DNA from: a virus
IMG/VR virus record: IMGVR_UViG_3300034105_001128
Location: 12,242-76,241 of that record
Reading direction: 5' to 3' (one strand)
Length of the DNA: 64,000 bases
The first letter of the stretch is position 1, and every line of letters begins with the position of its first letter. A program made the translations under genes and the position numbers. The notes beneath the pieces were generated by a model. The model did no database searches. It saw only the letters and a program-made list of their open reading frames with translations, and had not been told where the DNA came from. Shown in pieces: positions 24,990-64,000 of this stretch.

Positions 24990-24998
24990 AGAAATATT

Positions 24999-28292: not shown

Positions 28293-28293
28293 A

Positions 28294-28500
28294 CTATTCC
28301 TCTTCTACAGGTCGATCATCCATCATTACATAATCCTCTGGCATATCTACCAAAGTAGGTGCTGTAGCCATAGAACCACAGTCTGCACATTCCATATCTA
28401 GGAAGTACATAGAGATTTCATAATCTTGGAACATGCACTTTACATTCCATACTTGTGATCCACAAGCACAAATGTGTGTAGGCTCACCGCGAAGATCCAT
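28294..28500 (-). CDS. Small zinc-ribbon protein
   Basis: PTHICACG...CADCG. Confidence 0.6.
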   Translation of the reverse strand: MDLRGEPTHICACGSQVWNVKCMFQDYEISMYFLDMECADCGSMATAPTLVDMPEDYVMMDDRPVEEE

Positions 28501-28520
28501 AGCGTTTTTGTAATCTGGTT

Positions 28521-28778
28521 TTAATTCTGTGATGTGTTTAATTTTCTTAACCTCTTCCGATCATGTGGGGTTGTTCCCGCCCAAATCCCATCTAGGTTTG
28601 GGTATTGCATTGCGTACTTAAGGCAAGAGTCCTTAATCCAACAGTCTTCGCATACTTTTCTAGCCTCATCAATTATGAGCGGATCTTTATAATCCGGTGG
28701 AAAGAATAAGTCTGGATCCGCATCTAGACAAAGTTGGGTTCCGTTAAAAGGATTGAATTGGCTGGCCAAAAGATCCAT
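28521..28778 (-). CDS. whiB: Second WhiB-family protein
   Basis: LC..DPDLFFP..ARKVCEDC.IKDSCL..GIWAGTT...R; start reassigned to MDLLAS after GGAGG. Confidence 0.82.
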   Translation of the reverse strand: MDLLASQFNPFNGTQLCLDADPDLFFPPDYKDPLIIDEARKVCEDCWIKDSCLKYAMQYPNLDGIWAGTTPHDRKRLRKLNTSQN

Positions 28779-35500: not shown

Positions 35501-35746
35501 GTACAAGCCGCCAGCTAAATAGGTGCCTTTATAAGGGTCGTCAATATTTCCAACTGCACTCCTAACTAGTTTCCAATGGGTTAGCGGACCATCATTTGGA
35601 TCAGGGTTAATAATCCCCCAAGAAACGGCAATTTCATTATAGTTGTATGCCCAAGCTTCAATACCAGAGTTGTAGTAGACACCTACGGCTGAAGTCTCAC
35701 CATATCTAAAACCAGAGCCGTACCTACTTGTGCCATATTTAGCCAT
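32588..35746 (-). CDS. Baseplate/tail protein with repeated carbohydrate-binding-like (N.SFE...W) domains
   Basis: Follows baseplate J; HKGT wedge-like motif; repeated N(G/N)SFE...W and DG.Q/MLE motifs. Confidence 0.7.
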   Translation of the reverse strand: MAKYGTSRYGSGFRYGETSAVGVYYNSGIEAWAYNYNEIAVSWGIINPDPNDGPLTHWKLVRSAVGNIDDPYKGTYLAGGLYSTITSGYTDLITDPFTGEYCYSLWVFTGTKWISCGSSYALNISEDSSLQKVSNWLPKAWLNVTDYSTGEAVGENEDNTFYKMLSVFSFVYDKFRLEAFLLGNVNNRIYTPNSVLKYKISDFNFPFEPALGDTYHRSLSSVGNMVHSHKGTSTAFATFTTALTHWGNDIRVGHNLLLDYNDASFEESLGRWSASSGTLAQKTFDAESLSPPSLSQTLWELTTLPKLSGFGQLTTASTSAVTLSLPGSGNNVTLYGVPVKPNTKYFFRGNILHRDNAATITSTIEFYDMYGTLLAATSGGPSLTTTTSWKEFTATDSSGIVSHPKAKFAKVKITITPSSASSSRYAIDLCQFTELEHRFVYQDPRRVNIHVHGEKQNFMPNGSFENGIHGWEPFNGSAIEDSTKTAAIAHGTKCLKLKSTANGNSALISDWVPVDPSTAYTASAYVLGSATRKARIRIEFSNKATLEEQAQVLTDANGAYYAALVNYSDSDEITLSTTTKNQISVTFLSPPVSQDSVAPCAKVSIYFSDNLANDEYWVDGAMLEEGSEISPYFNGLSGVTPANPVVQQYYSPNDCKWEIKNRFNYMHNHGFETNTTDWTSTGTLTRTASDSGLEPLYNSYFGKVAFTTSTTITGTYYLKEVAKGGEDIVVSAYVRRPSSTAITYSIGNSSYTLPASGDGWTRISGTYKLTSGATTGTFTISVSETTATYVHIDGVQVEYGRIPSQYILNDSETTTLVNPTNSAKNILATQSEARDSGKSTYFHNYDIKISRLRASLGDYAMHGSSWAIKTGVPTHPYTDIEKSLIPNNSFEASLGNWTASNSTLSRNVTTGSIFNYNTVSGQAYAVVTTAGSSGDKTYGIVSEAIPITSNGGYYASAAVRPVASVSAAGNYILTVDFYDANNYSTSSGFGTPMYTKTKTTAVTLTTRWAYIADTYAVSSIAGAAYARITIKSTPTTYGASNAFHVDNVVFRQ

Positions 35747-40312: not shown

Positions 40313-42268
40313 TTATGGTTTCGGTGTTTCAGGAGTGCCTGCAGGAGCAATGCCGCCCATAGTACCAATAGACTGGATTCCCGTTTCTCCCTCTACGTTA
40401 AATTGGGCAGGGTAACGAGTAAAGTCAACAGAAACAACTGTAAGCATAGGAACCATATTTAGATCAAAAATTTTATGGGTAACATTGAGTCCAGTTACAG
40501 AACCAAAATACCTTAAATTTGGTCCTAAGTACATCCACAATGGGATACCAGTAATATAGCCAATATCCGAGCTTCTACGATATTCTTTGTGCCCAATATT
40601 AGCGCCGTAGTTTTCATCAAGCAGCATGGTGTTTTCTTCTGGATCTCCGTTTAAACAACGGTATAAAAACTCTAAATCGTATTCAGTTCCTCGGTTTAAA
40701 AGTCCATAACGTTCTTCCTCTTGTAGCGGTCTTCCATACGCAGCGGTTTCATCCCTCTTTGCAGCAGCCATATTTAAATAACTTAGGTCGCTAATCCTAC
40801 TTATTAAAAGCTCAACTTTAACAGTTTGATTACCAGTAAGAGAAGTTGCAGAGTCTTTTGAGCCAAACGTCCAGTCAATTGAATTATTGCCACTAGTGCT
40901 ATAGCCAATAACTTCTGGGTTGTACATAAATCTAAAGCCCCATTGCTTTGCTTTTGCCTTTGAGCCAGTGCCTAAAGATAATGCGCTATGGTTCATTACT
41001 GATGCAGAAAGTTTGTCTTGGAATATGCGGCCGCGTTCTAGGCGACCGTCATCACCTATAAACTTATATTTACCGTTTAGCTTTGCAAATTCGTCAGAAT
41101 TAAATGGTTGACCTTTTGAATCTAATGCAACTCCCGCACGTAAGCCAAAAGGTATGCTCTTGCTAGCAACGTGTGGTGGTGGATTCCATCTTTGAGCATC
41201 ACCTGGTGGAAATACTTGCGTTGGTTTGTCCGGTGTGTTTGCTGGATTCGAATCTAATTTGTCTCCACACTGTCCAAGCTGAGCATCGTATAACTTTTTT
41301 TCCATTTGCCGTAAGTTTGTTGGGCTTTTTTTAAAACTTGTATAGGTACCAGAATAATCTGAGCCCTTAACAATTGTTTTACCGTCAATACTAGAAGTTA
41401 TATAGGAATAGACTATCTTATTGCTAGTTCCAGTCTTTGTTCCAACTTTAAACCCAATCCATTGCTTGTTGCAAAGATCGTAAACATACTGGTACTTAAG
41501 CTGGCTTGTTTTAACAGTAGTATACGCCCCAGTTCTTTCTGTAAGCTTAGCCTTAAACTGATCTGGAAGATCAGGGATTTCTCTTGCTTTTCTTACATAA
41601 ATTTGTGGGTTTAGGCCACCAAGAGTTACTTCTCCAGAATAGGCGGCACTTTCCTTATCAACTTGGATTCTTATAGCGCCGGGAGTAGGTCGATAGGCAA
41701 CTTTATCGGGGAAGATGTCTGCCTTTACGGTAAATGGTGGGTCAAATGTAGCTTTAGTAGCACTTGTAACTGTAAGAGTAAACCAAAAATTTACACTTTG
41801 ATTTTCTGTATCTGAATTTGGAGAAGTTTGCTGGTTTGCAGTAATCCCGCTAAAACCACGATCTTTCTTTTTATCAAGTTGAACTTTACCAATGTCTAAG
41901 GTTGAGGCAGTCGGAATAATTTTTACGTTCTGTACGCATGCCTCATTTAACCAATAATATGTAGATACGTTAGTATCTGTATCAGTTTTTTTAAGATAAA
42001 ATCTTAATGTATATCTATACTTATTCCATCGTGTTGCACGAATTTGGGTAGCGTACGGGCCCGCAGCCGAAGGTGGTGCGGTGTATATACCATACGTATC
42101 TGGTGCGGTCTGTTCCCCTAAACGTTGCTCAAGGTGGGTATTAATATACTGACCAAACTGCGTAGCTAAAATAGTATCGTTGTACGAGCCTCCTGAGTTT
42201 ATCTCATTTTGCGTAATAAACGATGTCTCTACCTGTACAGTGTAGAAATAATTATAGGAAAATGCCAT
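40313..42268 (-). CDS. Tail tube initiator-like protein with N-terminal extension
   Basis: FMYNP motif; located between tape measure and LysM genes. Confidence 0.55.
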   Translation of the reverse strand: MAFSYNYFYTVQVETSFITQNEINSGGSYNDTILATQFGQYINTHLEQRLGEQTAPDTYGIYTAPPSAAGPYATQIRATRWNKYRYTLRFYLKKTDTDTNVSTYYWLNEACVQNVKIIPTASTLDIGKVQLDKKKDRGFSGITANQQTSPNSDTENQSVNFWFTLTVTSATKATFDPPFTVKADIFPDKVAYRPTPGAIRIQVDKESAAYSGEVTLGGLNPQIYVRKAREIPDLPDQFKAKLTERTGAYTTVKTSQLKYQYVYDLCNKQWIGFKVGTKTGTSNKIVYSYITSSIDGKTIVKGSDYSGTYTSFKKSPTNLRQMEKKLYDAQLGQCGDKLDSNPANTPDKPTQVFPPGDAQRWNPPPHVASKSIPFGLRAGVALDSKGQPFNSDEFAKLNGKYKFIGDDGRLERGRIFQDKLSASVMNHSALSLGTGSKAKAKQWGFRFMYNPEVIGYSTSGNNSIDWTFGSKDSATSLTGNQTVKVELLISRISDLSYLNMAAAKRDETAAYGRPLQEEERYGLLNRGTEYDLEFLYRCLNGDPEENTMLLDENYGANIGHKEYRRSSDIGYITGIPLWMYLGPNLRYFGSVTGLNVTHKIFDLNMVPMLTVVSVDFTRYPAQFNVEGETGIQSIGTMGGIAPAGTPETPKP

Positions 42269-45165
42269 TATAGACTACTCGCAATCTTACGTAGTGTTGC
42301 ATCTTTTCTCAATTTTTCTCCAACTAGCTTGACTAAACGTTCTGCCTCTTGAATACTTCCCTGTGCAATGTTTACCTTCATATCAAGGTTAATTGTAACA
42401 TTGCTATTTGAATTTACAGTAGCGCTGCTACTGCCGCCTCCGCCGTGATTTGAGCTAGTTCCTGCACCAGGAGCACCTACGTTCATACCATTGCTAGCTT
42501 CTCCACCCACGCGTGCTTCCAAAGCAACAGCATCTGCTTGTTTTAGGTGCTTCATGTAAGCTCCGGTATTATAACTAGACCAAGCGCTCCAGTTATTACC
42601 TTTTTGACTCATGTGGGCCGCTATACCAGCATTAGTACTTGGGTTAAACAAATCTTGATTGCTTCTGAGGTTAAACTTTTTACGCCTAGCTGGTCCGAGG
42701 CTGCCCAGCATATTAATTTGATACAGTCCGTAAGACTCATCGCCGGTTTTAGTGTTGCCATTAAATGCGTTGGATCTACCGCCGGATTCAGCAATAGCAA
42801 TTGCGTATGCAGTTTTTAGCGCATCTCCTTTAAATCCCTTAGATGAAATTAACTTTATAAGGTCTTTTTTACTACCTGTAATATTGCCGTCATATTTGCC
42901 GCCAGGAAGTTGAGCCAGAACATCGTCAGTTTTCTTTCCAAATACTTTTTCAAGATCATCATAAGATACTGGCTTTCCGTCTACAATGGTTTGTCCAAAA
43001 GCTGCTAAAATACTTGGGGAGGCATAAGAACTAGAGCTCCAGCCAGCCTTTTTAGTTTTAAAAACCCTTGACGCAGCCTCATTTAAGCTTGATAGTACTT
43101 GAGGAACTCCCTTACGTTTTTTAAACCAATCTCTAGGGTTGTACTGGACTCCTTTTTCATCTAATGTTTCAAAGTGAAGGTGTGCGCCACGAGAGTTTCC
43201 TCGACCAGGATCTTTTGCGCCACCACCAGACTTACCAATAACTTGTCCGGCTTTTACTTGTTGTCTGCTAGTTACAAGAATAGAGCGTAAGTGAGCATAT
43301 CGGCTAGAAGTTCCGTCAAGGTGTTTTATATCTACGTAGCTTCCATAACCATTTGGATCATTACCTATTCTTGATACTTTTCCTTCTGAGGCTGCAGTAA
43401 TAGGTGTTCCAGAAGGTGTTGCTAAGTCTATTCCGCGGTGGTTTGAACTAATTCTTTGTCCTTGTTTTGCAGCCCTTGCTGCCGCGCCAGGACGAGGGCC
43501 AAACTCTGAAGACACAGGTGTTGCTGAAGGAACAGGCCACATATGATTTGCGCCAGCAGTTTCTGCTTTCGGAGTTGAGGCATGACCAATGTTCATTCCA
43601 TTGCTGGATTCTCCACCTATCGAACCAAATAGCTGACCAAGTGCGTTACCGCCACCGGCAAGAAGCGCACCTATAATTGCACCAGGGGCAGCAGCAACAC
43701 CAAATCCTGCAGCTCCTACAGCAGCACCACCAGCTGCACCTATTCCAGCAGATTTAAGTACAGAGCCCCAGTCAAAGCCGCCTTTCTTTTTAGCGTCTTT
43801 GTAACCACCAAATGCAGACATTGCGGCACCAACAACTGGAAGGGCTTTACCCGCTACGCCTAAAAATCTTCCTGCTGAAGAAAGTGCTGGACCTGCCTTA
43901 GATAGTAACGACCCTCCCTTAGTTGCGGCCGTACCTAGTGCAGGTAGTACTGCTTTAGCACCTCCGCCACCTAAAAATTTAGATAGTAGTTTGTATTGGA
44001 GGAATGAAGAACCTAAACTTGCAACAGTACTTCCAGCTGTTGCAATGGCGCCTCCGGTGTTTCCCGAGTTAGGCAGAGTTTGTAAAATTCCTTTGAGGGT
44101 CATTAACCCATCATTAATTGGTCCAAGAAGATCTGCCATTGCACTAAAGCCATCATTAACTGCTGCGGTAGTTCTTGTAGCTACGTTGTAACCACCTACT
44201 AGACCTTCTTCAGTTGCAGCTAGTTTTCTAGCCTCACTGGTGTTGTATCTAAAATTAGAACGAACAGGGGAGCTTTTATCAACGCCCATAAGATCCAACA
44301 TCTTATTTGGATCTTTGCTGTTCATTGCACCAGAGTACTTTTTAGCAGACCCTGCTTTTGCTCTAGCACGAAGACCTGACTGCAATTGCTGCATCAAGGC
44401 TTGGTCCCCATTTGTTAGGGTAAGGAGAGTTTGATAAGACTTAGATCCTGGGTTATAAAGTAGGTCTGCTTCTTCTGCGGTAATCTGTCGTCCACGATAT
44501 AAAAAACGATACACATCGTTAACAATTTGGGAAATTGGCTTTAAGTTTCCTTTATCATCACGAATACGTACGCCCATGCGCAAAAAGCTCATGCCGTTCA
44601 TTCCAGCAACAGATGCGGCAGCAGCTTCGTTTGACATACCTGATTGTGCGCTTAGCCCAGCCATTTGGCTCATAATGTTACTTGAAGTTTTGGATCCTGC
44701 GCCATACCCGCCACCATACATCAAAGACATCTGTGCCATGACAGGTGACATAGCGCTTGTAGCTCCGCCACCTACCTGTTTGTTTGCCTGTAAGATAGCT
44801 TGTCGTGAAGACATTCCGGCCATGCCAGCGTAAGAATCTGCGCCAATGCGTTGAGTAACAGCAGCCATGGTATTTGGGGCCATGCTCATATATGTAGAGC
44901 CAGCTGCAAACCCTACAGCCGCACCTACTTGGGCCCGGGTAAACCCACCACCCATACCAATTTTACCGCCGCCAGATTTGCCACCCAAGTTGTCGGTTGT
45001 GTCTTTAACACTGTCCGCCATCTTGTCCCATTGCGAAGCAATGCCGTCCATGTACTTTGATACTTTTTCAAATAACTTTAGTAGATTTTTTCCAAAGTCG
45101 TCAAAGCTAGCGTCGTTGCCCGCTACGCTACCAAACCCTGGGTCGCCATCTGTTGCGACTCCCAA
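42268..45165 (-). CDS. Tape measure protein with M23 peptidase and lytic-transglycosylase-like domains
   Basis: Ala/Gly-rich body; HRGID, YAHL, HLHFE (M23); AIAESGG, YGLYQIN, WSAW (lysozyme-like). Confidence 0.88.
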   Translation of the reverse strand: MGVATDGDPGFGSVAGNDASFDDFGKNLLKLFEKVSKYMDGIASQWDKMADSVKDTTDNLGGKSGGGKIGMGGGFTRAQVGAAVGFAAGSTYMSMAPNTMAAVTQRIGADSYAGMAGMSSRQAILQANKQVGGGATSAMSPVMAQMSLMYGGGYGAGSKTSSNIMSQMAGLSAQSGMSNEAAAASVAGMNGMSFLRMGVRIRDDKGNLKPISQIVNDVYRFLYRGRQITAEEADLLYNPGSKSYQTLLTLTNGDQALMQQLQSGLRARAKAGSAKKYSGAMNSKDPNKMLDLMGVDKSSPVRSNFRYNTSEARKLAATEEGLVGGYNVATRTTAAVNDGFSAMADLLGPINDGLMTLKGILQTLPNSGNTGGAIATAGSTVASLGSSFLQYKLLSKFLGGGGAKAVLPALGTAATKGGSLLSKAGPALSSAGRFLGVAGKALPVVGAAMSAFGGYKDAKKKGGFDWGSVLKSAGIGAAGGAAVGAAGFGVAAAPGAIIGALLAGGGNALGQLFGSIGGESSNGMNIGHASTPKAETAGANHMWPVPSATPVSSEFGPRPGAAARAAKQGQRISSNHRGIDLATPSGTPITAASEGKVSRIGNDPNGYGSYVDIKHLDGTSSRYAHLRSILVTSRQQVKAGQVIGKSGGGAKDPGRGNSRGAHLHFETLDEKGVQYNPRDWFKKRKGVPQVLSSLNEAASRVFKTKKAGWSSSSYASPSILAAFGQTIVDGKPVSYDDLEKVFGKKTDDVLAQLPGGKYDGNITGSKKDLIKLISSKGFKGDALKTAYAIAIAESGGRSNAFNGNTKTGDESYGLYQINMLGSLGPARRKKFNLRSNQDLFNPSTNAGIAAHMSQKGNNWSAWSSYNTGAYMKHLKQADAVALEARVGGEASNGMNVGAPGAGTSSNHGGGGSSSATVNSNSNVTINLDMKVNIAQGSIQEAERLVKLVGEKLRKDATLRKIASSL

Positions 45166-53911: not shown

Positions 53912-54577
53912 TTAGTATTTGCTGCTGTTAATATGGCAAATTTCAATCTCATTTACATTAACATGGCTTGGTAATGACCCTACCCAGTAAATAGATTCTG
54001 CCAGATCCTCTGCAGTCAATGCCTGGTCTCGTTTTTGTTCTTGAGTATCAATCGTTGCTGGGCAGATCTCTGTAATTTTAATGCCGAATTGTGGGAACTC
54101 AAGCCTCATAGTATCGATTAGGCCTCGCGCACCCCTCTTGGCGTTTGTATAGTTTCCTCCACCGCGATAGGGCACTTTACCACCAAAGGAAGTAATAAAG
54201 ACAATAGTTGGTGACTGTGATCTTTCCATACAAGGCACAAATAATTGGGATAAGTACATGGGCCCAGTGACGTTTATGTCATAGGCTTTTCTAAAGTTTT
54301 CTGGGGTCTCATGAATAATGTTGGTAGGTGCCGATCCACCACCAGCATTATTAACTAAAAGGTCTAGTGTTATATCCTTATACTTTTCAAAGAATATCTC
54401 TATTGCCTTAGAGTCTGTAACATCAAGCTGGTATACCTCAACGTTATCGGATACAAGCTCAGATACTTTAGAGAGGTTTCTTGAAACAGCAATGACCTTG
54501 TACCCATTTTCAGATAGGCGTTTGACTGTCGCTAATCCTACGCCTTTGCTTGCCCCAGTAACAATAGCTGTTTTCAA
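53912..54577 (-). CDS. Short-chain dehydrogenase/reductase
   Basis: TGASKGVG, LDVT, NNAG, YTNAK (YxxxK). Confidence 0.92.
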   Translation of the reverse strand: MKTAIVTGASKGVGLATVKRLSENGYKVIAVSRNLSKVSELVSDNVEVYQLDVTDSKAIEIFFEKYKDITLDLLVNNAGGGSAPTNIIHETPENFRKAYDINVTGPMYLSQLFVPCMERSQSPTIVFITSFGGKVPYRGGGNYTNAKRGARGLIDTMRLEFPQFGIKITEICPATIDTQEQKRDQALTAEDLAESIYWVGSLPSHVNVNEIEICHINSSKY

Positions 54578-55333
54578 TTACATACCTTGATTCTTATTAA
54601 GATCCATGTTGTTATGTATCCAATGACCAGGAATCATATATTTAAAACCAGACTTTACAACGTGTGCCGTATGAAAATATGGTGGAAATGCTGGAAATAT
54701 GATGACGCTATTTTCTTTTGGCTTTAATCCAAAATCAATTGCTTTATTTGCAACAGATACATCATAGTCTAGGTCTACAGCTGGTGCTGACCCCTTAGAA
54801 AAGCCGTCAGCACTAGTCCATCCGCCATCATAATCTTTTAATTGGAAAGAGATTTCTCCGCCTTCACAATCATCGTTTAGGTACATAACTAATGAATATC
54901 TTAGTGTTTTATCGCCATCTAACTGGTCAAAGTGTGCGCCCATGCCCACTCCAGTGTTGTACTTTTTTATATTAAAAGTTGGAAAAAGCCTTGGCTCGTC
55001 AAAATCACCTAAAGAAGAGGCGTAGTCTTTGCAAACGTTATACATTGTAGTCATAATAGCGTCGTAGATATATTTACTTTTTTCTGCTACTTCGGCTGAA
55101 TGCGGAGAAAAAATTGGACTAAGCTGGTTTATCGCATTAATATCAAAGGTCTTTGTTTCCCCGTAGATAAAATCTTTATCATTAGAGGCAGTCCAGATGT
55201 TCCAAACATTTACGCCTGACTCTGGGTATTGCTCAAGAGTATCTAGCTCTTTCCAAACTTTTTTAAAAGTATCAAAATCTTCAATAGCATCTGTATAGTA
55301 GTATGCTTTTGGGTCTAGAATTTCTCTATTCAT
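54578..55333 (-). CDS. 2OG-Fe(II) oxygenase, prolyl-4-hydroxylase-like
   Basis: HFD, YLNDD.EGGE, distal H, K. Confidence 0.85.
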   Translation of the reverse strand: MNREILDPKAYYYTDAIEDFDTFKKVWKELDTLEQYPESGVNVWNIWTASNDKDFIYGETKTFDINAINQLSPIFSPHSAEVAEKSKYIYDAIMTTMYNVCKDYASSLGDFDEPRLFPTFNIKKYNTGVGMGAHFDQLDGDKTLRYSLVMYLNDDCEGGEISFQLKDYDGGWTSADGFSKGSAPAVDLDYDVSVANKAIDFGLKPKENSVIIFPAFPPYFHTAHVVKSGFKYMIPGHWIHNNMDLNKNQGM

Positions 55334-55344
55334 CTGTCTCCCCC

Positions 55345-56004
55345 TTAGTATTTATTTTTTTCATAGTGGTCTTTTTCTTTAATAAATCCAACAAGAACGT
55401 ACCTTATTGGTCCATCCCCTACATGCTTGACCCCATGCTCATATTCTTCGTTTCCTGGAAAAAATAGCATAGTTCCTGGTTTAGGTTTTAACTTAATATC
55501 AAGTTTTGGAAAGAATATCTCGCCGTCTGCATAGTCATCATTAATGTATACAATTGTCGCGTACTTAATTGAGGGGTCCGTATGCTGGTCTGTGTGGGCT
55601 TTTAACTCAACACCAGGCTGCATTCTTTGAATTGTCGCAAGACCACTTAAAATTAGTTCTGGGTCAGCTTTGACTACCATTGAGTTTAGTCCATCATATA
55701 AAGGCCTATGGATCCCATGATGTAATATGTTAAAGTTTTTATCTTTCCAATTTTGAGTAATTTCAAACTTACCCTCAGCAACCAAATTCTCTACGTCATC
55801 TCTGCCAAATTTTTCCATGCAAAAGTACTTTAAGTTTGCGTGGTACTCTACTTCCCAATCTTCTTGAGAGGTACTATGGATAATATCCCAAAAAGTAGTT
55901 AGTTGGTCTTCTGATAAAAAGTTTTCAACAGAGAATAGTTCTGGAGTAATATCTGTAACTACATATCCACTATCTATTAGCTGTTGTTTAAAAGACTCAA
56001 TCAT
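55345..56004 (-). CDS. 2OG-Fe(II) oxygenase, prolyl-4-hydroxylase-like
   Basis: ENFLS, HTD, YINDDY.DGE, H, R. Confidence 0.88.
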   Translation of the reverse strand: MIESFKQQLIDSGYVVTDITPELFSVENFLSEDQLTTFWDIIHSTSQEDWEVEYHANLKYFCMEKFGRDDVENLVAEGKFEITQNWKDKNFNILHHGIHRPLYDGLNSMVVKADPELILSGLATIQRMQPGVELKAHTDQHTDPSIKYATIVYINDDYADGEIFFPKLDIKLKPKPGTMLFFPGNEEYEHGVKHVGDGPIRYVLVGFIKEKDHYEKNKY

Positions 56005-56752
56005 TTGCAATATCTTCTATTTTGTACTTATTTCCAGCAGCATCTAACTTCCAACCCTGCTTTAGAAGATCTTGCCACTCTGCTCGTTCAATCTCTTGCT
56101 GAGCTCTAGTAGCCTTCATTTCTTCGGCCCAAGCGTCTCTTACTTCTTGTGGGTAGTCTGACTCTTGTCGGTCATCCCAGAAAGATCCAATGGTGTATCT
56201 TACCCCACCTGTGATAAGGGTTACTTCGTGCATGTTATTAAACCCGCCGTCGAATACGGCAAGCATTCCAACTTCTGGCTTAATGGAGATGTTTTGTGTT
56301 GGGAACTGTAAAAGTCCCCCCTCAAAATCGTCATTAAGATACAGAAAGCCTGCGTAACGGCTTCTTGTAAACGCGCCTGAGTTTCCTTCGGCATCTGTGT
56401 TGTCGGAGTGGATTCTTGCGTATGCTCCTGGCTCCCACTTTTGTGTGTGGTACCCAATCTTACAAATTGTTTTTGGGTCAAGGTCGTGAACTGAAGCAAC
56501 TGCTTCTGGCATTACCTTTTCAATGTCTGAAAATATGGTTGGAGAAAGACCAGCGTCAATGACTTCTTGGTCATTATCTTGTGGCAAAACTGAAGAGTAT
56601 GACTCATAAAATGAAATAGGCATCCAAGAGATTGCCCCATTGGCTGCCTGAGCATCTAGGGCTTGAATCATTTTTTTGCAGTCTTCTTTGCTTATAAAGT
56701 TTTCATAAACAACTATGTCTTTTGTTAGTCTTTTTTTGTTTTCCAGGTTCAT
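55997..56752 (-). CDS. 2OG-Fe(II) oxygenase, prolyl-4-hydroxylase-like
   Basis: ENFIS, HSD, YLNDDFEGG, HEV, R. Confidence 0.88.
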   Translation of the reverse strand: MNLENKKRLTKDIVVYENFISKEDCKKMIQALDAQAANGAISWMPISFYESYSSVLPQDNDQEVIDAGLSPTIFSDIEKVMPEAVASVHDLDPKTICKIGYHTQKWEPGAYARIHSDNTDAEGNSGAFTRSRYAGFLYLNDDFEGGLLQFPTQNISIKPEVGMLAVFDGGFNNMHEVTLITGGVRYTIGSFWDDRQESDYPQEVRDAWAEEMKATRAQQEIERAEWQDLLKQGWKLDAAGNKYKIEDIAND

Positions 56753-56768: not shown

Positions 56769-57542
56769 TTAGCTATTTATAAGTGATTTATCTCCAGCGA
56801 TAAGCTTTTCTATTTCTTGTTCAACAAGTGCAAATTCTTCTTGAAACACCTCTGGGGTTCTGCCTTCTCCTAGAGCAGCAGGAGTTCCCGCAGCTATTAG
56901 GGCTTCTTTTAGTGTTTTTTCAATATCGTAATTTAGCACTGTGCACTGGAACCAATTTGCTACATAGCCATCTTTATCAATTAAGTACTTTTCAAAGTTT
57001 CCGCCCTGCATTGCGCCATTAGAAATAGGTTGATTAAGCCAAGGTGACAGGTAACCGTCTCTGTTTGGGATTCCCAATTCTTTTTGCTTTGCGGCGTAAG
57101 CATGCATTTGATCTTTAATCTCACGGTATAGCTCATGAGTTTCTTTTCTTGGCTGCCCCAACCCATTTACAGAATCATCACCTTTATACGGGCTCAATTC
57201 AGTAGCGCTCTTATTTGGGTTTGACGACACCATCTCTGAGAACTTAAAGGTGGTTCCATAAACCTCTTGTCCGTATTCTTGTGAGTCTAGCCCGCAGGTA
57301 ATGCCTTCAGACCACTTACCCTTAGTAACTCCTGGACCACAGAAGTCATTAGTAGGAATAGCAATAACTTGGAAATCATCTCCACCGTACTTATCTTGAA
57401 GCCATTGGAGAACTTCCATTTGATTAGCGTTGCCGCAACCAACTGTTGTATTAGCTAACAGAGTTACTTTACCCTTAAATTGCTCTAAAAACCCAGGGGT
57501 TCCCTCGGCCGAGTTAAGTGGTATATCATAGATAGATTTCAT
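56769..57542 (-). CDS. Cys-type glutathione peroxidase-like protein
   Basis: SIYDI, FKGKV.L.NTTVGCG, PTNDF, NFEKYLIDKDG. Confidence 0.8.
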   Translation of the reverse strand: MKSIYDIPLNSAEGTPGFLEQFKGKVTLLANTTVGCGNANQMEVLQWLQDKYGGDDFQVIAIPTNDFCGPGVTKGKWSEGITCGLDSQEYGQEVYGTTFKFSEMVSSNPNKSATELSPYKGDDSVNGLGQPRKETHELYREIKDQMHAYAAKQKELGIPNRDGYLSPWLNQPISNGAMQGGNFEKYLIDKDGYVANWFQCTVLNYDIEKTLKEALIAAGTPAALGEGRTPEVFQEEFALVEQEIEKLIAGDKSLINS

Positions 57543-57562: not shown

Positions 57563-58249
57563 TTACGGTTGTTTGTCACCTGTATGCTTTGTTATTTCCC
57601 AAAAGAATGGGCATGTAAATCTTAAGCCACTCTTGATCTCAGTAACTCCGTGGATATAGTTTTTATCCCCTGGGAAGAAATAAGCAGCGCCCTTTTTAGG
57701 CTTAAACTGTACACCCTGCAAAGGAAAGTATAGCTCACCGCCCTCGTAGTCGTCATTTAAATAGAACAAACTTGAGAGGTCATAGTTTGGAAAATCGTTA
57801 GGTGTTCCAGCATCAGGGCCCTCATGAAGCTCTTTATCAGCATGGGGTTTTTGAAACTGCCCAGGAAGCCACTTAACAATAGTTGTGCCCGTAGGGTGAA
57901 CCTCTACCTTATAAAAGTCTTCAATAATAGGCTTTAGTCTTTGAAATAAGCCTGCAATTATTGGGGATATCTTTGGGTCATTTTTATCTAAGGTAGGCTG
58001 GGTTGCAACCCTATCTTTCCAGTAATCTGAGTCGTAAGTGACCGTACCATTCTCATTTGTATGGCTTTGAGTTACATCCCAGATTGTTAGAGACTTAGCC
58101 GCTTTTTCTAAAAACTCTATCTCTTCTTGAGTCATAAAGTTCTCTAGCTCAACAATCATGTCTTTGCTGTCCCCAAACCAGCCGGATGGGGTCATAGACG
58201 GCGTTCTTTTTACTACAGTATATGAATCTTTGTTTTGTTCCATGTTCAT
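57563..58249 (-). CDS. 2OG-Fe(II) oxygenase, prolyl-4-hydroxylase-like
   Basis: ENFMT, HAD, YLNDDYEGGELYF, HGV, R. Confidence 0.88.
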   Translation of the reverse strand: MNMEQNKDSYTVVKRTPSMTPSGWFGDSKDMIVELENFMTQEEIEFLEKAAKSLTIWDVTQSHTNENGTVTYDSDYWKDRVATQPTLDKNDPKISPIIAGLFQRLKPIIEDFYKVEVHPTGTTIVKWLPGQFQKPHADKELHEGPDAGTPNDFPNYDLSSLFYLNDDYEGGELYFPLQGVQFKPKKGAAYFFPGDKNYIHGVTEIKSGLRFTCPFFWEITKHTGDKQP

Positions 58250-58962
58250 AGCATATTCCTTTTCGTTTTATCTACTACCCCTAATTTTAATGCTTTTACT
58301 TCATGAGAGCCTTGGGACTCTTCTTTTTCATTTACAGCGTCTCTATACCAGTCTGTCCATTTTCCAGCAGAGTTTATTGCCTGTGCGGCATTCCCATAGG
58401 ATATGTTTGCGTTTAGTCTTTTTCTATCTGGGTCTTGGTACTCAACAATCTCAATATCTGTCCCATTTAAATTTGACAAAGATATGGGGATAATTGTGGC
58501 AACTGGAGTTCCCGCTTTAATAACTACTCGCTTATTTGCAGTCTTTGCCTTAATAGCTAAAGGCAAAGGATTATCATAAAAAGAAGTACTAATTAAAGAC
58601 GCCATTGTTTCAAACTCATCACTAAAATAATTTACCGGGTTAATGGTAAAAATACTGACGTCCTGATCTGTTCTAAAAACTAGGCCGGTATTTAGGCTTA
58701 CAGAGGACTGCCCTCTTCCAGAATAGGATCCTTCTGGACTAAATACTTGAACATGATCTGGGGTTTGGTCATTTATACCATCCCAAATAAACTCAATATC
58801 TTCTAGACAAGACAGGCCCCAACCAATTACATTTGACTGGGTTACTGGAAAACACCTATACGCATGGTTCTCTGATGTTGCCTCCATCCAGTCTCTTTTA
58901 ATTGACATGGGTTGAATATCAAACATGGCACCTTGTGTTTTTTCAACTGAGATATTAAACAT
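58246..58962 (-). CDS. Hypothetical beta-rich protein (DUF6065-like)
   Basis: RDWM...HAYRC.P...N..GW; GTP..TIIP. Confidence 0.5.
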   Translation of the reverse strand: MFNISVEKTQGAMFDIQPMSIKRDWMEATSENHAYRCFPVTQSNVIGWGLSCLEDIEFIWDGINDQTPDHVQVFSPEGSYSGRGQSSVSLNTGLVFRTDQDVSIFTINPVNYFSDEFETMASLISTSFYDNPLPLAIKAKTANKRVVIKAGTPVATIIPISLSNLNGTDIEIVEYQDPDRKRLNANISYGNAAQAINSAGKWTDWYRDAVNEKEESQGSHEVKALKLGVVDKTKRNML

Positions 58963-59618
58963 TAGTCTGCGTCTGCGCTATACATCTCTGGGGTGTGAAA
59001 CTTTTTGCTGTAGTCAAGCATTGTCACAATAGAATACTTAGTTCCAGAAGTTACGGGCATTGCTTGATGTGGATACATAAAGTTTGATGGGAAGATAAAT
59101 AGGTCTCCAGCATCTGCTTTAACCTTTAAATTTTGTAATCTAAAGTAAAGCTCCCCACCTTCGTAGTCATCATTTGGATATGCAACTAAAGATACAGTAC
59201 AGTTATAAGAAAAACCATGGTCGTGGTGCTCCATAAAGTGCTGTCCTGGGCCGTACTTAATAAAGTTAAAGGCTTCCCAGTACTTTAGGTTGTTAATATT
59301 ATACATCCTTGAGTAGTCTTGAACCGCAGGCAACTTTACATCGTATAGGTCTTGCCACAAAGATTGAAGATTTAAACTAACCTGACTCATGTCATTTTCA
59401 ATATCTGTCTTTTTAAATTTAAAATCATTGCAGTCACGATATTCTGGCATAAGTTGTTTATACCCAACATATGCTGGTTGCCAAGCATACCCAGTCGTAT
59501 CTCCTTCTGGCTTAAGGTTAGCCTCAATTCGACCTACAACATTGATATCCTTCTTGATTACGCCTTTATAGCAAAAAATGCCATTACCTAAATCAACTTT
59601 TTCTGTCCATGTTTGCAT
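58962..59618 (-). CDS. 2OG-Fe(II) oxygenase, prolyl-4-hydroxylase-like
   Basis: HHD, NDDYEGGELYF, FPSN..YPH, GTKY; start MQTW after AGGGAG. Confidence 0.88.
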   Translation of the reverse strand: MQTWTEKVDLGNGIFCYKGVIKKDINVVGRIEANLKPEGDTTGYAWQPAYVGYKQLMPEYRDCNDFKFKKTDIENDMSQVSLNLQSLWQDLYDVKLPAVQDYSRMYNINNLKYWEAFNFIKYGPGQHFMEHHDHGFSYNCTVSLVAYPNDDYEGGELYFRLQNLKVKADAGDLFIFPSNFMYPHQAMPVTSGTKYSIVTMLDYSKKFHTPEMYSADAD

Positions 59619-59628
59619 TATATTCTCC

Positions 59629-60396
59629 CTATTTGTAGTCTCTTTTTGACCAAACTTTGTTTTGGTATACTCCGCCATCAGGCTGACGGTAAAATTGCAT
59701 GTTATTCACTAGTTTATCATACATTGTAGATTGATCTGGAATCTCTATTTTGTGTTCCCAGTTTTCTCTTTTAAACGGAAGAACCTGCAGGTACGGGGTT
59801 CCTTCGGGTATTGTACCTTCCCAACCTTCTGGAAGAAAAAACGGAAAAGTTCCAAGGAAATGAAGCTTATCTGAGTCTACTACGCCAGTAGTATTTAAAA
59901 ATGGCAGGTCAAACCTATTCATTGGGGTCATAAACAGCGCACTGTATCCTTCTGGGAGCTCTAACCCCCAAGGAGAACTCCAAGCAAAGTGGGTTTGATA
60001 GTACCCCTTTGGGTGTTCAAACTGTGGCATAGGAGGTCGTTGAGTACAAAAATCTTTATACTTAGGGTCATCAATTTTTACGTCTATGATTCCCTGGTCA
60101 TTTTTATAAAAAACTAAGTCGCACGGTGTTTTAAAAATGTATCCAGTTGTAAAGGAGTCCATAAGAGCAGGGCACGCCTTCCACGTAGGAATCTTTCCAT
60201 AGTCATCAGTTGTGCCTTCTTTAGGGAACGGGCAGACTTCTTTTGGCGCCTTGTAGTATTCCCCGTTTGGCATTTTTGCAAACCTATCTGCATCTTTGTA
60301 CCAATCTGGCATCTGTGTTTGTGTTGGCGCTGGGACAGAAATATGCTTCTTATCTATCCATGGGCGAAAAGATCTAAATATAGCGACTAAAGACAT
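59629..60396 (-). CDS. Hypothetical beta-rich protein (DUF6065-like)
   Basis: PDWYK, KACP..D...GY, P.GYS.LF..P.N, GVVDSD, GTP..Q..PFKRE.W. Confidence 0.55.
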   Translation of the reverse strand: MSLVAIFRSFRPWIDKKHISVPAPTQTQMPDWYKDADRFAKMPNGEYYKAPKEVCPFPKEGTTDDYGKIPTWKACPALMDSFTTGYIFKTPCDLVFYKNDQGIIDVKIDDPKYKDFCTQRPPMPQFEHPKGYYQTHFAWSSPWGLELPEGYSALFMTPMNRFDLPFLNTTGVVDSDKLHFLGTFPFFLPEGWEGTIPEGTPYLQVLPFKRENWEHKIEIPDQSTMYDKLVNNMQFYRQPDGGVYQNKVWSKRDYK

Positions 60397-61109
60397 TACT
60401 TGTGCCCCAATTCATTGATATCTGTCATAACAACAACGCAGTATTTTGTCCCCGAAACCATTGGCAGGGATGCATGCTCATAAATATAGTTTGATGGGAA
60501 GACTGCAATGTCCCCAACTTTTGGCTTATAAACTAAGTTATCAAGTCTTGGGAACTTTATGTCTCCACCTTCATAATCATCGTTAATATAGATGACGGCA
60601 GACACTGTACAGTTGTAGGCAGGTCCATGGTCTGCGTGGATATTAAAGTGGGTTCCCGACCCGTCGTATTTTACAAAGTTAAATGCCTCATAATACACAA
60701 CATTAATGCCCCAATATTTTGCATAATCGTCTATGCAGTATTTAAGTTTTTGATATATTTCTTCGTGCAGATCTATTAGTTCTGAGTTAGTTTCGTCCCT
60801 AGGTCCAAGGTTTTCTTGCTTATATTTAAAATCTACGCAGTCTCTGGCCTTTTTAATTGGTACATCAGAATTAGTTACTTGGGCTTCCGACCACTTATAT
60901 TTGCTACCAGTAGACAAATTGGACTCAAGTACGTTAATGTATCTTTTAGAATCATCCAAAGAAAAAGTATTATGATATACATTTAGCCCTAGTCCTGGAT
61001 TGCTAATAGTGATGTCGCTTTGTGGCATTAGTCTTGCAACCCTATCCGAAGCTGTCTCAGACCTATCCTTTGTAAACCAAGGATTTTCATTTTCGTCGTA
61101 TATACCCAT
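60396..61109 (-). CDS. 2OG-Fe(II) oxygenase, prolyl-4-hydroxylase-like
   Basis: HAD, YINDDYEGG, FPSN..YEH, GTKY. Confidence 0.88.
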   Translation of the reverse strand: MGIYDENENPWFTKDRSETASDRVARLMPQSDITISNPGLGLNVYHNTFSLDDSKRYINVLESNLSTGSKYKWSEAQVTNSDVPIKKARDCVDFKYKQENLGPRDETNSELIDLHEEIYQKLKYCIDDYAKYWGINVVYYEAFNFVKYDGSGTHFNIHADHGPAYNCTVSAVIYINDDYEGGDIKFPRLDNLVYKPKVGDIAVFPSNYIYEHASLPMVSGTKYCVVVMTDINELGHK

Positions 61110-61215: not shown

Positions 61216-61653
61216 TTATGGCGCTACGTAGTCGGGATTTTTTGGATTTTGCGGGTGCCACTCTGTCAGCCTAGCTATCTCTGAAACAGTCCTATTTTTT
61301 ATGATAAACTTTGTACCATCAAAAGATGCGTTTGGTGAGACAACATGGTGCCCATAAGGATACTCAGTTAAGTTTACCACAGTAGGGTTACTTAGTAGGA
61401 TTGCCGCAAAATATTCAGACGTTTGAAATATTTCAATGTCGCCGTTATCTTTTGTTATCTCAAGAGTAGGGCCATCGTGAGACGTATACTCGCTAGAAAT
61501 ATCACGTATCCCAGTGTTTTTTGTAAACAGATTAGCACCTTCTTCTGTGACTACAAAATCATAGACGCATTCTCCGTCAATAACAAAAGTTAATGGTGCC
61601 CCCCGTAACTTATCTCTATCACGGACATAAGTAATATCTAGCTCGTTAATCAT
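61216..61653 (-). CDS. Hypothetical protein (paralog of 50968..51207)
   Basis: TFVIDGE.V...AAILLSNP.VVNLT. Confidence 0.6.
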   Translation of the reverse strand: MINELDITYVRDRDKLRGAPLTFVIDGECVYDFVVTEEGANLFTKNTGIRDISSEYTSHDGPTLEITKDNGDIEIFQTSEYFAAILLSNPTVVNLTEYPYGHHVVSPNASFDGTKFIIKNRTVSEIARLTEWHPQNPKNPDYVAP

Positions 61654-61681
61654 AATGCCTCTTTTCTTATTTTATAGATCA

Positions 61682-62692
61682 TTAGCATTGACCACCAGAT
61701 GTGAAGGATGAGGTACAGGCCCCAACATAGCCACAACCAGGAGTTCCATAATAGTAAACATCTGAGCCACCACACTTATTTGGCGCACTTACTGGGAAGT
61801 AAGGTGGGAAGAATGGCGGGAAGAATGGGAATGATGGCGGGAAGAATGGCGGGAAGAACGGCGGGAAGAATGGAAAGAATGGTGGGAAGAATGGTGGGAA
61901 GAATGGGAAGAATGGAAAGAAGGGTGGGAAGAATGGCGGGAAGAATGGGAAGAACGGTGGGAAGAATGGTGGGAAGAACGGGAAGAATGGAAAGAACGGA
62001 GGAAAAAATGGTGGAAAGAATGGAAAGAACGGCGGGAAGAATGGTGGAAAGAATGGAAAGAATGGAAAGAATGGTGGGAAGAATGGCGGGAAGAACGGAG
62101 CAAGTGTGGTGATTGATCCAGAGGCGGAGGATGCAATTGAGGTTCCATTAGCATTAGTAGCTGTAACTGTATATGTCTGAGAAGTTGATGCGGTATCAGC
62201 AATAACAATAGGAGAAGTAGATCCTGTTCCAGAAGTACCATCAGAGCCTGTTACGGTATAGCTAGTAATGGTGCTACCGCCAGTGGCTGGTGCTGAGAAA
62301 GCAATTGAGTTTTGATTAACACCAGCAGTAGGGGTTGGGGCAGACATGGTTGCAGGAACTGTTGTAGCTGTAATTGAACTTGAAGCAGATGAAGCTGCAG
62401 ATGTTCCGGCAGCATTAGTAGCTGTAACGGTAAATGTGTAGGCTGTGGCAGATTGAAGTCCAGACACTGTAATTGGAGAAGATGCGCCAGTTCCAGTATA
62501 TCCGCCAGGAGATGAAGTTACAGTAAATGATGTAGCGGCCGGGGATAGCGCAGGCAAAGAAAAGGTAACTGTCGCTGCGCCATTGTTAAACGCTCTGCCT
62601 GTCCCTACGTTTGTAGCAGATACACTTGTTGGAGCCAATGGCTCTAGAAAGTCATTTGATGCAGATGAACGTCTACCGGTCTTCTTAGCCAT
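61682..62692 (-). CDS. Two-FN3-domain protein with Pro/Phe tract and Cys-rich C-terminus
   Basis: FN3 signatures GL....YTFTVTATN..G.S..S (twice), then (P)PFF repeats, then 4-Cys tail. Confidence 0.85.
   Translation of the reverse strand: MAKKTGRRSSASNDFLEPLAPTSVSATNVGTGRAFNNGAATVTFSLPALSPAATSFTVTSSPGGYTGTGASSPITVSGLQSATAYTFTVTATNAAGTSAASSASSSITATTVPATMSAPTPTAGVNQNSIAFSAPATGGSTITSYTVTGSDGTSGTGSTSPIVIADTASTSQTYTVTATNANGTSIASSASGSITTLAPFFPPFFPPFFPFFPFFPPFFPPFFPFFPPFFPPFFPFFPFFPPFFPPFFPFFPPFFPPFFPFFPFFPPFFPPFFPFFPPFFPPFFPPSFPFFPPFFPPYFPVSAPNKCGGSDVYYYGTPGCGYVGACTSSFTSGGQC
61793..62098 (-). repeat. Coding repeat encoding ~102 aa of PFF/PPFF units
   Basis: Only Pro and Phe except one Ser and one Tyr; mixed synonymous codons. 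Confidence 0.95.
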
Positions 62693-62707: not shown

Positions 62708-64000
62708 TTACGCTGTTAGATCGCCGTATACAACCCATGTATTTGCTGCTCTCTTAAAGAGAGTTGCAGATGACCAAGTTGTACGAAGTTTTAAGCCAGG
62801 TGTTGCATTTACTGTTGTTGTTCCTGGTGTTACTGCAGCAATTGTTACCTGTCCCGCTCCAGTTTGAAGAATATCAATAGATGTTCCGATTGGGTAGTTT
62901 AGAGTAGCATCTACAGGAATTGATATTGTTACACCAGTTGCTGAAGATACCTCAATTAATGAATCTCTTTCAGTAAGGGCTGACAAAGTATATGCTGCTG
63001 TCTTTTGAATAATTGGTGTACGAGAAGGAGTTCCTTCTTTTGTCTGTGTACCGTCTGTAAATGCTACGCCAGAAAGTGATGGAGTTGCGATTACTGAAAT
63101 TTCATTTCCGCTTACAGAAATATTTGTTCCTGCTGTGATTGTTCCTGAACCTGAGAACTGGAATACATCAATGTTATCTGTTCCAACAACAAATGTTGCA
63201 GGGTCTGCAACTACTTGAATCCAGCCAGTTCCAGCGTTTGTTCCATCTTGTACGAATATGTATGCACCTGGAATCTCTGATGCTTCATCACAATATGTAC
63301 AACGAGTAAGAACATAAGGTGTTGAAATAGATCCCATATTTGAGACGTAGTATCTACCATTTTGAGCCTTATTAGTTTGATTCTTTACAAGAATACCTTT
63401 TCCAACTGCCCAACCTGATGCTCCACCTGATTCTGCAGGAAATACTCCGTTTGTATTGTGTGTAAGAGTTGCGCCTACTCCAGCTGTACCATTGCTGTAT
63501 GTAGCATCAATGTTTGCTGTAGTTGCTCCAAGAACTTGTGGCTTTGCAATAACTCCTGATGCTGTGTTGTCAACATACTGCTTTGTTGCAGCATGCAGTG
63601 AAGATGATGGGTCAGCATGCAAAGTGATGGCCCCTGTCATTGTTCCACCAGCAAGTGCTAACTTAAGATCAAGTGCTGTTTGTGTAGCAGTAGAAACAGG
63701 CTTGTTTGAATCTGCTGTATTGTCAACATTTCCAAGTCCAACATCTGATTTTGTGATTCCAGTAGGTGTATTAATTACTGGAGAGGTTAAAGTTTTGTTA
63801 GTTAGAGTTTCAGTTTTAGAAGCAGTTGACTTAGCATCTAGCTGTGTTTGAATGCTTGAAGTAACACCATCAAGATATCCAATTTCAACATCTGAAACAT
63901 TAGCAACAGTTGCTTGCTTTCCATCTAATTGTGTTTGAATTGCGCCTGTGACTCCATCTAAATATCCAGCTTCTATAGCAGATACTGTTGAAGATATTGC
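62708..64000 (-). CDS. Tail-fibre-like protein, 5' end outside window
   Basis: Frame open from 64000; E.GYLDGVT..IQTQLD x2, LTNKTLTSP, KSDVGLGNVDNT, AATKQYVD, ILVKNQT..QNG.Y, GAGQVT...W..YGDL. Confidence 0.8.
   Translation of the reverse strand, partial: AISSTVSAIEAGYLDGVTGAIQTQLDGKQATVANVSDVEIGYLDGVTSSIQTQLDAKSTASKTETLTNKTLTSPVINTPTGITKSDVGLGNVDNTADSNKPVSTATQTALDLKLALAGGTMTGAITLHADPSSSLHAATKQYVDNTASGVIAKPQVLGATTANIDATYSNGTAGVGATLTHNTNGVFPAESGGASGWAVGKGILVKNQTNKAQNGRYYVSNMGSISTPYVLTRCTYCDEASEIPGAYIFVQDGTNAGTGWIQVVADPATFVVGTDNIDVFQFSGSGTITAGTNISVSGNEISVIATPSLSGVAFTDGTQTKEGTPSRTPIIQKTAAYTLSALTERDSLIEVSSATGVTISIPVDATLNYPIGTSIDILQTGAGQVTIAAVTPGTTTVNATPGLKLRTTWSSATLFKRAANTWVVYGDLTA

Follow-up and report, generated by a model that had tools for sequence, protein, structure and literature searches.

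Tail-fibre tips and their downstream helper genes form well-known cassettes, namely, Stf/Tfa of phage lambda, H/G of P2, S/U of Mu, and gp37/gp38 of the T-even phages. Pro-rich stalks are known from the collagen-like (Gly-X-Y) repeats of phage fibres, from extensins, and from cnidarian minicollagens, which in addition have Cys-rich ends. Here, we describe a phage gene with similarities to both types of systems. It lies in a 64,000-nucleotide stretch of DNA (hereafter, the window; positions 12,242 to 76,241 of the 76-kb IMG/VR virus record IMGVR_UViG_3300034105_001128) and encodes a protein, denoted FN3-PF, that consists of two fibronectin type III (FN3) domains, a long tract composed almost entirely of Pro and Phe, and a Cys-rich tail. 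On five independent grounds, the tract is a real feature that is strongly selected at the protein level. The tail is exchanged among related phages as a unit together with the gene or genes that precede the first of several downstream oxygenase genes, with the left junction of this unit lying where the tract ends.

The FN3-PF gene is a minus-strand open reading frame (ORF) of 336 amino acids (aa; positions 61682-62692), in which the segment initially singled out in the first-pass annotation of the letters (61793-62098) corresponds to residues 199-300. The parts of this gene and its immediate downstream neighbor are as follows:

62099-62692, minus strand: residues 1-198, comprising the N-terminal peptide followed by the pair of FN3 domains (Pfam fn3; AlphaFold)
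61796-62098, minus strand: Pro/Phe tract, residues 199-299, with 15 PPFF units, 11 PFF units, PPSF and PPYF (unit parsing, repeat and codon analysis)
61682-61795, minus strand: 37-residue four-Cys tail (motif C-G-G-S-D-x-Y-Y-Y-G) and stop codon, a swappable module (comparison with relatives)
61216-61653, minus strand: orf145, accessory gene accompanying the four-Cys tail class (blast cluster 4; inside the swapped DNA block)

The N-terminal peptide contains an NDFLEP motif, with residues that are almost invariant across 60 homologues; neither a signal peptide nor a transmembrane helix was found at the N-terminus. The protein belongs to the fibronectin type III family both by the profile match, which exceeds the curated cut-off (PF00041, E 1.8e-7, 31.7 bits against a cut-off of 25), and by the fold, with residues 20-200 modeled by AlphaFold as two beta-sandwiches at pLDDT >95. 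The tail has exactly 4 Cys among the 37 residues C-terminal to the tract, is modeled with pLDDT <50, and had no match in a sequence search of the PDB; its class is shared with the loci L017 and L030-L032. No Hint domain was found in the window protein. Thus, with Pfam fn3 upstream and the four-Cys tail downstream, the tract does join FN3 domains to a Cys-rich tip, as initially described. Two further ORFs, 61708-62112 (plus strand) and 61789-62241 (minus strand), overlap the tract; these are stop-free alternative frames of the repeat, which read Gly/Arg/Met-rich and Ser/His-rich, not genes, and gene callers may misannotate them.

Maintenance of the Pro/Phe tract at the protein level

Residues 199-299 divide without remainder into PF units and comprise 45 Pro, 54 Phe, one Ser and one Tyr, with the longest uninterrupted P/F run spanning 88 residues. 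The tract is uncharged and extremely hydrophobic, and contains no Gly, let alone one at every third position as in a collagen-like triple helix, and no FG dipeptides of the kind that make up FG-nucleoporin-type repeats. Tandem Repeats Finder detects a higher-order repeat of 75 nucleotides (nt), or 25 aa, that is far above chance (3.9 copies, 86% matches, score 427) and reads (PPFF)2(PFF)2(PPFF)2PFF. The codons of the tract and a few flanking positions (CCA 31, CCG 13, CCT 2, CCC 1, TTC 44, TTT 10), along with the unit parsing, agree with the irregular alternation of PFF and PPFF units, encoded by mixed synonymous codons, that was noticed at first sight. Translation of the 17 Pro-Pro steps of the tract might plausibly depend on elongation factor P, judging from the sequence. 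AlphaFold yields no regular structure for the tract (pLDDT 54-61), which suggests disorder, so the stiff rod that had been envisaged is not supported; the sister clade described below has Gly-rich, FG-like repeats instead.

Several lines of evidence show that selection preserves the protein sequence of the tract while allowing its length to change in whole units. In the window, pairwise comparison of the three full 25-aa copies gives 6, 8 and 11 nt differences, and all 25 of these fall in third codon positions. In pairs of relatives with tracts of equal length, changes are likewise nearly all synonymous, with 14 nt differences and no aa changes between L037 and L039, and 20 nt differences and a single aa change between L038 and L049. 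We collected 79 IMG/VR loci with the FN3-PF protein as the query; in all 75 that have a complete ORF, the tract is in frame, and its length ranges from 17 to 180 residues. The length variants listed within the tract in lake metagenome contigs are 3-nt indels only (two deletions and one insertion of TGG, which adds one Pro codon). Across 229 family sequences, the units obey the grammar P(1-2)-X-F, in which the last position is Phe in 99.2% of the cases; X is mostly Phe (76%) or Tyr (17%), the remainder including a few Ser, His, Arg or Met. Taken with the preserved frame and the codon-sized indels, the synonymous divergence bears out the initial view of a peptide maintained as such rather than a drifting microsatellite.

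Codon preference in the tract is inverted with respect to the remainder of the gene. The TTC:TTT ratio is 2842:324 in the family tracts versus 56:391 in the N-terminal halves of the same genes, that is, TTC accounts for 90% versus 12% of the Phe codons. Among the Pro codons, the share of CCG is 24% in the tracts versus 2.6% in the N-terminal halves, and that of CCT is 10% versus 30%. The window gene itself shows the same inversion between the tract and the front part. This pattern could reflect selection against slippery runs of T or C, or for fast cognate decoding of a tract that is half Phe.

At least 17 sequencing runs of lake water contain the stretch. In three of these, not counting the possible source run, contigs match positions 61216-61904 and 61961-62455 with zero mismatches, but none of the short-k-mer contigs from the lake runs spans the whole tract; an RNA run contains only short or ~92%-identical pieces and thus does not demonstrate transcription of the gene. 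Because the borders are matched and a spanning contig is lacking, the tract and its borders can be taken as real, whereas the exact length has no independent confirmation. A low-complexity repeat that no single short-k-mer contig bridges might be suspected to be an assembly artefact. However, in-frame tracts are found in 79 independently assembled IMG/VR loci and in more than 2,800 database proteins, and both borders are exactly matched in three other runs, so that we consider the probability of an artefact to be negligible.

Beyond these loci, a word-indexed search retrieved 2,870 proteins at E ≤0.001 among 8,000 scored candidates, and nearly all of the 120 matches listed have FN3 domains along with a P(P)[FY]F tract and differ in which of several end types they carry. 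No match to the region or the protein was detected by megablast and tblastn among 50,697 phage records, which may not include the record of the window itself. Used by itself as the query against longer proteins, the tract produced no scored match, and the tail by itself yielded no candidates, both being weak evidence given the low complexity of the queries. In the literature searched, there is no description of this family, and the matches to PPFF or FFPPFF are Amanita peptides and unrelated papers; the parallels with antamanide and cyclolinopeptide that had been drawn amount to shared letters and nothing more.

A second scan, seeded with a variant match, revealed a sister clade that shares the N-terminal motif and the FN3 domains, and in the same place as the Pro/Phe tract carries an FG-like repeat, namely, FSPFG, VFGFSPFG, FTPFG, or the Pro-free GAFGAF. 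A simple frameshift relation between the PF and FG repeats was considered and dropped on inspection alone. The aromatic fraction of the tract stays at about one third to one half across both clades (~33% Phe in the sister clade), and because it is this steady, the common feature of the tract is a Phe-rich, uncharged low-complexity composition, with Pro-richness confined to one branch. The first-pass annotation had held that homologues with a non-PF tract would speak against maintenance of the peptide; such homologues exist, so the objection applies in letter, but their tracts are themselves in-frame, Phe-rich repeats.

Exchange of the tip cassette

In comparisons with loci that have a different tail, DNA homology begins ~350 nt before the stop codon of the fibre gene, ends within the final codons of the tract, and restarts ~0-45 nt upstream of the first oxygenase gene (oxygenase a), whereas between loci of the same tail class, it is unbroken through the tail and orf145. 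The exchanged unit accordingly comprises the tail and the accessory gene, given where homology breaks and restarts. The N-terminal part of the window protein is 91-92% identical to its counterparts in other-tail loci but only 86-89% identical to those in loci of its own tail class; because N-terminal similarity does not follow tail class, recombination is indicated.

The nature of the tail and the presence of an accessory gene are tightly associated. An accessory ORF of at least 100 aa follows the tail in 28 of the 29 distinct cases with Cys-rich tails (12-85 residues) versus 3 of the 15 with short, Cys-free tails (Fisher p 2.6e-7), and one of these three (L033) was misparsed and is actually Cys-tailed. 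Gaps of 71-160 bp separate the first oxygenase gene from the adjoining short tails and from the Cys1-Hint ends of L037 and L039. Moreover, the blast clusters of the accessory ORFs correspond to tail classes: cluster 4, to which orf145 belongs, occurs only beside C-x-G-S-D-x-Y-Y tails (the window, L017 and L030-L032) and in L067. Being located directly downstream of, and co-varying with, the C-terminal tip, orf145 shows the arrangement that defines the helpers of tail-fibre tip/helper cassettes. In many of the relatives with Cys-rich tails, a second cassette gene encodes a mini-protein of ~80 aa with a CxxC...CxxC pattern (DUF6171, phrog_13558), for example, L006:11264-11524 and L007:4947-5195, with 24 other loci, but not the window, containing it as well. 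A link between the GSHPx gene of this genomic block and the Cys tails was considered and dropped, as the gene is present or absent regardless of the tail type.

The orf145 product has 33 representative relatives among 1.8 billion clusters and no match to a Pfam or PHROG family. The orf145 family and two other accessory clusters are remotely related by profile comparison (hhalign probability 81%, E 1.2e-5, with a common L-S-N-P motif), whereas the same comparison with accessory cluster 1 showed no relation. Although the structure of orf145 is modeled confidently (pLDDT 87.5), the model had no match in Foldseek, nor did orf145 have a usable one in the ESM Atlas; the best VIA-align Z-scores, 5.0 for Cwp2 and 4.8 for the Pam3 fibre, a cyanophage fibre chain, are within noise. 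Matches of orf145 to proteins of 1,041-1,285 aa were rejected as WD40 or other repeat noise. The predicted complex of orf145 with residues 288-336 of the FN3-PF protein scored 0.03.

The location of the junction raises the question of whether the tract matters mainly as DNA, that is, as a codon-homogenized homology arm for the exchange of tip cassettes, with the peptide being tolerated as a flexible spacer. Homology with other-tail loci stops exactly at the last codons of the tract, its uniform codons (TTC, CCA) raise the nucleotide identity between phages, and the length of the tract is highly variable. However, nearly all substitutions are synonymous and the second Phe of the unit is invariant in 99.2% of the cases, which implies selection on the peptide, and the sister clade retains ~33% Phe in quite different repeats. 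We therefore regard a role primarily as DNA as unlikely, with the caveat that the functions of the tract as a DNA joint and as a peptide are not mutually exclusive.

The same layout, in which a conserved front and a repeat lead to a hypervariable C-terminus and a small co-varying gene lies directly downstream, would also fit a polymorphic-toxin-like pair, in which the Cys-rich C-terminus is a secreted effector, orf145 is the immunity protein, and the tract is the delivery region. Such a pair seems very unlikely because toxin or immunity families were not detected in the Pfam and PHROG searches, many relatives lack a tail or have a terminal Hint domain with nothing after it, and the context is a structural block of a lytic phage.

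Indeed, in either clade, many of the proteins terminate in a domain whose first residue is an invariant Cys (Cys1) and whose last two are His-Asn. The profile of twelve such ends matches inteins (E 7.6e-8) and the BIL domain 2lwy (E 1.5e-6), and 11 of the 12 match Pfam Intein_splicing at E values up to 0.1 (the best being 1.1e-6); single-sequence searches of the PDB with these Hint-like ends gave nothing useful, so that only the profile search produced matches. Thus, the features of Hint/BIL autoprocessing are found in the relatives but not in the window protein. Caps similar to the Hint ends of the relatives are present on annotated phage tail and virion proteins.

Other variants of the family illustrate the diversity of its ends. 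In L003, L004, L005 and L047, the C-terminal domain is ~170 aa long, lacks the Cys1 and the His-Asn of Hint, and contains the motif I-N-C-E-P-Y-D; this class is followed by three extra unannotated genes (170-212 aa). A 600-aa member of the sister clade (L101:97-1897) has two FG-type tracts, a Pro/Thr/Val linker and an internal Cys-rich segment between these, and a Hint-like end, and looks like a fusion of two modules. Some relatives possess a second FN3-tract gene (L009:10687-11580 and L010:8223-9651, the latter followed by an orf145 homologue), which suggests duplication of whole fibre modules.

Oxygenases and genomic setting

The FN3-PF gene and orf145 are located between a tail-fibre gene and a run of predicted 2-oxoglutarate (2OG)-Fe(II) oxygenases of the prolyl 4-hydroxylase (P4H) type, all on one strand. 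Around the two genes listed above, the order is:

62708-64000, minus strand: 3' part of the tail-fibre gene, truncated at the contig end (PHROG tail fibre and minor tail matches, E 1e-20)
60396-61109, minus strand: 2OG-Fe(II) oxygenase a, P4H type (Pfam PF13640, E 7.8e-10; triad H158/D160/H212)
59629-60396, minus strand: phrog_7084 protein, DUF6065-related (PHROG; syntenic in relatives)
58962-59678, minus strand: 2OG-Fe(II) oxygenase b (Pfam, structure-database search, triad)
58246-58962, minus strand: DUF6065 protein (Pfam, E 8.5e-25)
57563-58249, minus strand: 2OG-Fe(II) oxygenase c (Pfam, triad)
56769-57542, minus strand: glutathione-peroxidase-like (GPx-like) protein, in some relatives only (Pfam GSHPx, E 2.8e-9)
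55997-56752, minus strand: 2OG-Fe(II) oxygenase d (Pfam, triad)
55345-56010, minus strand: 2OG-Fe(II) oxygenase e (Pfam, triad)
54578-55333, minus strand: 2OG-Fe(II) oxygenase f (Pfam, triad)
53912-54577, minus strand: short-chain dehydrogenase/reductase (SDR), end of the block (Pfam adh_short, E 6.5e-42; syntenic)

All six oxygenases match the Pfam family 2OG-FeII_Oxy_3 (PF13640) and contain the invariant HxD...H triad with a Lys or Arg located 9-10 residues past the distal His, that is, the iron ligands and the basic 2OG-binding residue characteristic of P4H-type enzymes. The nearest solved sequences for oxygenases a and b are the Bacillus anthracis prolyl 4-hydroxylase and the collagen lysyl hydroxylase LH3, although this similarity is weak (E ~4e-4; 4e-4 for oxygenase a against the B. 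anthracis enzyme). The number of oxygenase matches within 9 kb downstream differs among the tract types: 6-8 in PF-type loci, with at least one in 56 of 56 loci, mostly 1-2 in FSPFG-type loci, and none in the Pro-poor or Pro-free GAFGAF-type loci. Two syntenic loci, L103 and L110, are distinguished by a pair of oxygenase genes. In the tree of the N-terminal halves, there are 3-4 independent contrasts, all in the same direction but too few for significance. The link between oxygenase number and the Pro content of the tract across lineages is suggestive, and it is plausible, judging by gene content, that the six oxygenases hydroxylate the prolines of the tract, which would be their likeliest target. 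The initial proposal that hydroxylation makes the tract soluble gains plausibility from the six intact triads, from the prolyl and lysyl hydroxylases as nearest solved relatives, and from an oxygenase count that tracks Pro.

The repeated PFF and PPFF units and the many adjoining tailoring-type enzymes might also bring to mind a precursor of excised or cyclic Pro/Phe peptides, akin to the ribosomally made peptides that are modified after translation (RiPPs), and a repeated core peptide was among the first proposals. The units, however, follow one another in an irregular order with no cleavage or recognition sequences between them, none of the 11 neighboring genes matches a protease or macrocyclase family in Pfam, and homologues carry FG-like repeats in place of the tract. 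A folded FN3 'leader' of 200 aa would be unprecedented, and neither the 336-aa length with folded domains nor the absence of spacers conforms to a precursor of the cyanobactin or amatoxin type. For a tract that is embedded in a protein of the fibre block, we find this origin hardly credible.

The gene order of the block is conserved in the 79 loci, and the last ~120 codons of the tail-fibre gene are co-conserved with the FN3-PF gene; in the sister-clade loci, the gene in the tail-fibre position carries Mtd_N. Farther downstream, on the same strand, are the genes for the sheath, the tape measure and the baseplate, by which the phage is myovirus-like. The sheath protein is 33% identical to that of Streptomyces phage BRock, and by sequence comparison, no cultured phage is close. 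Three WhiB-like genes (18658-18879 and 28548-28736 in the window, both on the minus strand, and G000:C1:247-411 outside the window; Pfam Whib, E 1e-18 to 8e-14), the lake-water origin, and a G+C content of ~43% point to a freshwater actinobacterial host, so this is most likely a freshwater actinophage.

This setting bears on yet another reading, in which FN3-PF is not a virion protein but acts on the envelope or membrane of the host, for example, in exclusion, in the timing of lysis, or in making infected cells adhere, with the tract inserted in lipid. In its favor, the tract is uncharged and very strongly hydrophobic, and the virion location is deduced from gene context. Nevertheless, a membrane role appears rather improbable, considering the lack of a detectable signal peptide or transmembrane helix at the N-terminus, the position of the gene, which has the fibre gene on one side and tail morphogenesis genes on the other, and the resemblance of the relatives' Hint caps to those on annotated phage tail and virion proteins.

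Several other features of the window are worth mentioning. A 901-aa PA14-domain ORF (10633-13338, plus strand) is on the strand opposite to almost all genes, and both the GC skew and the AT skew flip sign there. A 1,052-aa protein with a CBM_4_9 carbohydrate-binding domain (32588-35746, minus strand) is encoded beside a baseplate wedge gene, and the tape-measure-like protein (42268-45165, minus strand) contains a metallo-endopeptidase/lysin domain. Within the replication block (19216-29988, minus strand) are genes for RecA, a DNA polymerase of family A, and two helicases, one of the SNF2 type and one DnaB-like. In the window, tRNA genes were not found.

A putative modular appendage and its known counterparts

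The explanation that we favor, giving it about an even chance of being correct, is that FN3-PF is a modular appendage protein associated with the tail fibre, with a Phe-rich stalk, exchangeable tips and probable hydroxylation of prolines. Under this model, the conserved N-terminus would attach to the virion, with the co-conserved C-terminal domain of the fibre that precedes it as the probable docking site, and the tract would present the variable tip, acting as a hydrophobic, cohesive or adhesive stalk whose length can be adjusted. The Cys tail would form a knob, either distal or for docking, that depends on a helper of its own, and orf145 could help to fold, protect or dock this Cys-rich tip, as the cognate downstream helpers do for tail-fibre tips. 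The six P4H-type oxygenases would hydroxylate the tract prolines and thereby tune solubility and conformation. Aromatic-proline steps favor cis peptide bonds whereas 4-hydroxylation favors the trans, polyproline II (PPII) conformation, which provides a rationale for tuning such a tract by hydroxylation.

Several observations weigh against this model. The putative placement in the virion and the presumed hydroxyproline are deduced from gene context, and with the low AlphaFold confidence for both the tract and the tail, neither a stalk nor a knob is established. The exact length of the tract rests on one assembly. The orf145 protein has no recognizable chaperone family or fold. The relationship between oxygenase number and Pro content is largely one deep split and hence is confounded by phylogeny, and the Pro-free lineages of the FG clade still keep one oxygenase ~8 kb upstream, whatever the Pro content.

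A bolder version of the appendage model, which we consider possible but doubtful, is that the tract is a new protein material, namely, a ribosomally made Pro/Phe polymer that is heavily hydroxylated by the six oxygenases and forms an adhesive or cohesive virion fibre with plug-in tips, which would be either Cys knots, served by private helpers, or Hint caps that remove themselves; the tract would serve both as the stalk and as the recombination joint. By analogy, the function of such a material would be intermediate between that of extensin or mussel glue and that of FG hydrogels.

The new elements here are the borders of the cassette, the co-variation of tail and helper, the codon inversion, and the codon-sized indels in the population. 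Should the appendage model hold, it would provide a substrate for the clusters of P4H-type oxygenases in the genomes of aquatic phages, the function of which is, to our knowledge, unexplained. The shafts of phage appendages would also gain a new type of repeat, two-letter Pro/Phe or FG-like, and a host-range-type cassette system, with a tip and a private helper, would come to light in abundant lake actinophages. A polymer with hydroxylation-dependent solubility would be of interest as a biomaterial and as a natural test of the conformational effects of aromatic-proline steps.

Comparison with described systems reveals partial likeness to several of these. Like the FG-repeat nucleoporins, the family has uncharged, Phe-rich low-complexity tracts, and in the sister clade, these include literal FG repeats (FSPFG, GAFGAF). 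Unlike those of the nucleoporins, the window tract has neither FG dipeptides nor hydrophilic spacers, and the context is a phage fibre. Many family members resemble BIL/Hint proteins (PDB 2lwy) and inteins in ending with a Hint domain that has Cys1 and a terminal His-Asn, whereas the window protein has a Cys-rich tail and a separate accessory gene instead.

The co-occurrence of P4H-type oxygenases with a Pro-rich repeat protein is reminiscent of chlorovirus PBCV-1, in which a prolyl 4-hydroxylase acts on the virus's own Pro-rich repeats, and the B. anthracis P4H (PDB 3itq, 5hv0) is the nearest solved sequence to oxygenase a, albeit a weak match. Compared with these systems, the block described here encodes six paralogues along with the DUF6065, phrog_7084, GPx and SDR genes, the activity is a predicted one, and the putative substrate prolines are flanked by aromatic residues, not by Ala, Lys or Gly. 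With the collagen-like fibres, extensins and minicollagens, the family shares a Pro-rich shaft of variable length and associated hydroxylases, and its Cys module could staple chains by disulfides. The likeness is by analogy only. Unlike collagen, the tract lacks Gly at every third residue, which excludes a triple helix, and is half Phe.

The Stf/Tfa-type cassettes are further counterparts. Among these, orf145 would be an outlier, falling outside any tail-fibre-assembly family in Pfam or PHROG and lacking a convincing solved fold. The tips of the window family are also of a different nature, being Cys-rich peptides of 25-85 residues in place of a folded receptor-binding domain, on a shaft that is a Pro/Phe polymer. 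The overall logic is nonetheless the same, with a conserved proximal part, a variable C-terminal tip, and a small downstream gene that co-varies with the tip and is exchanged together with it.

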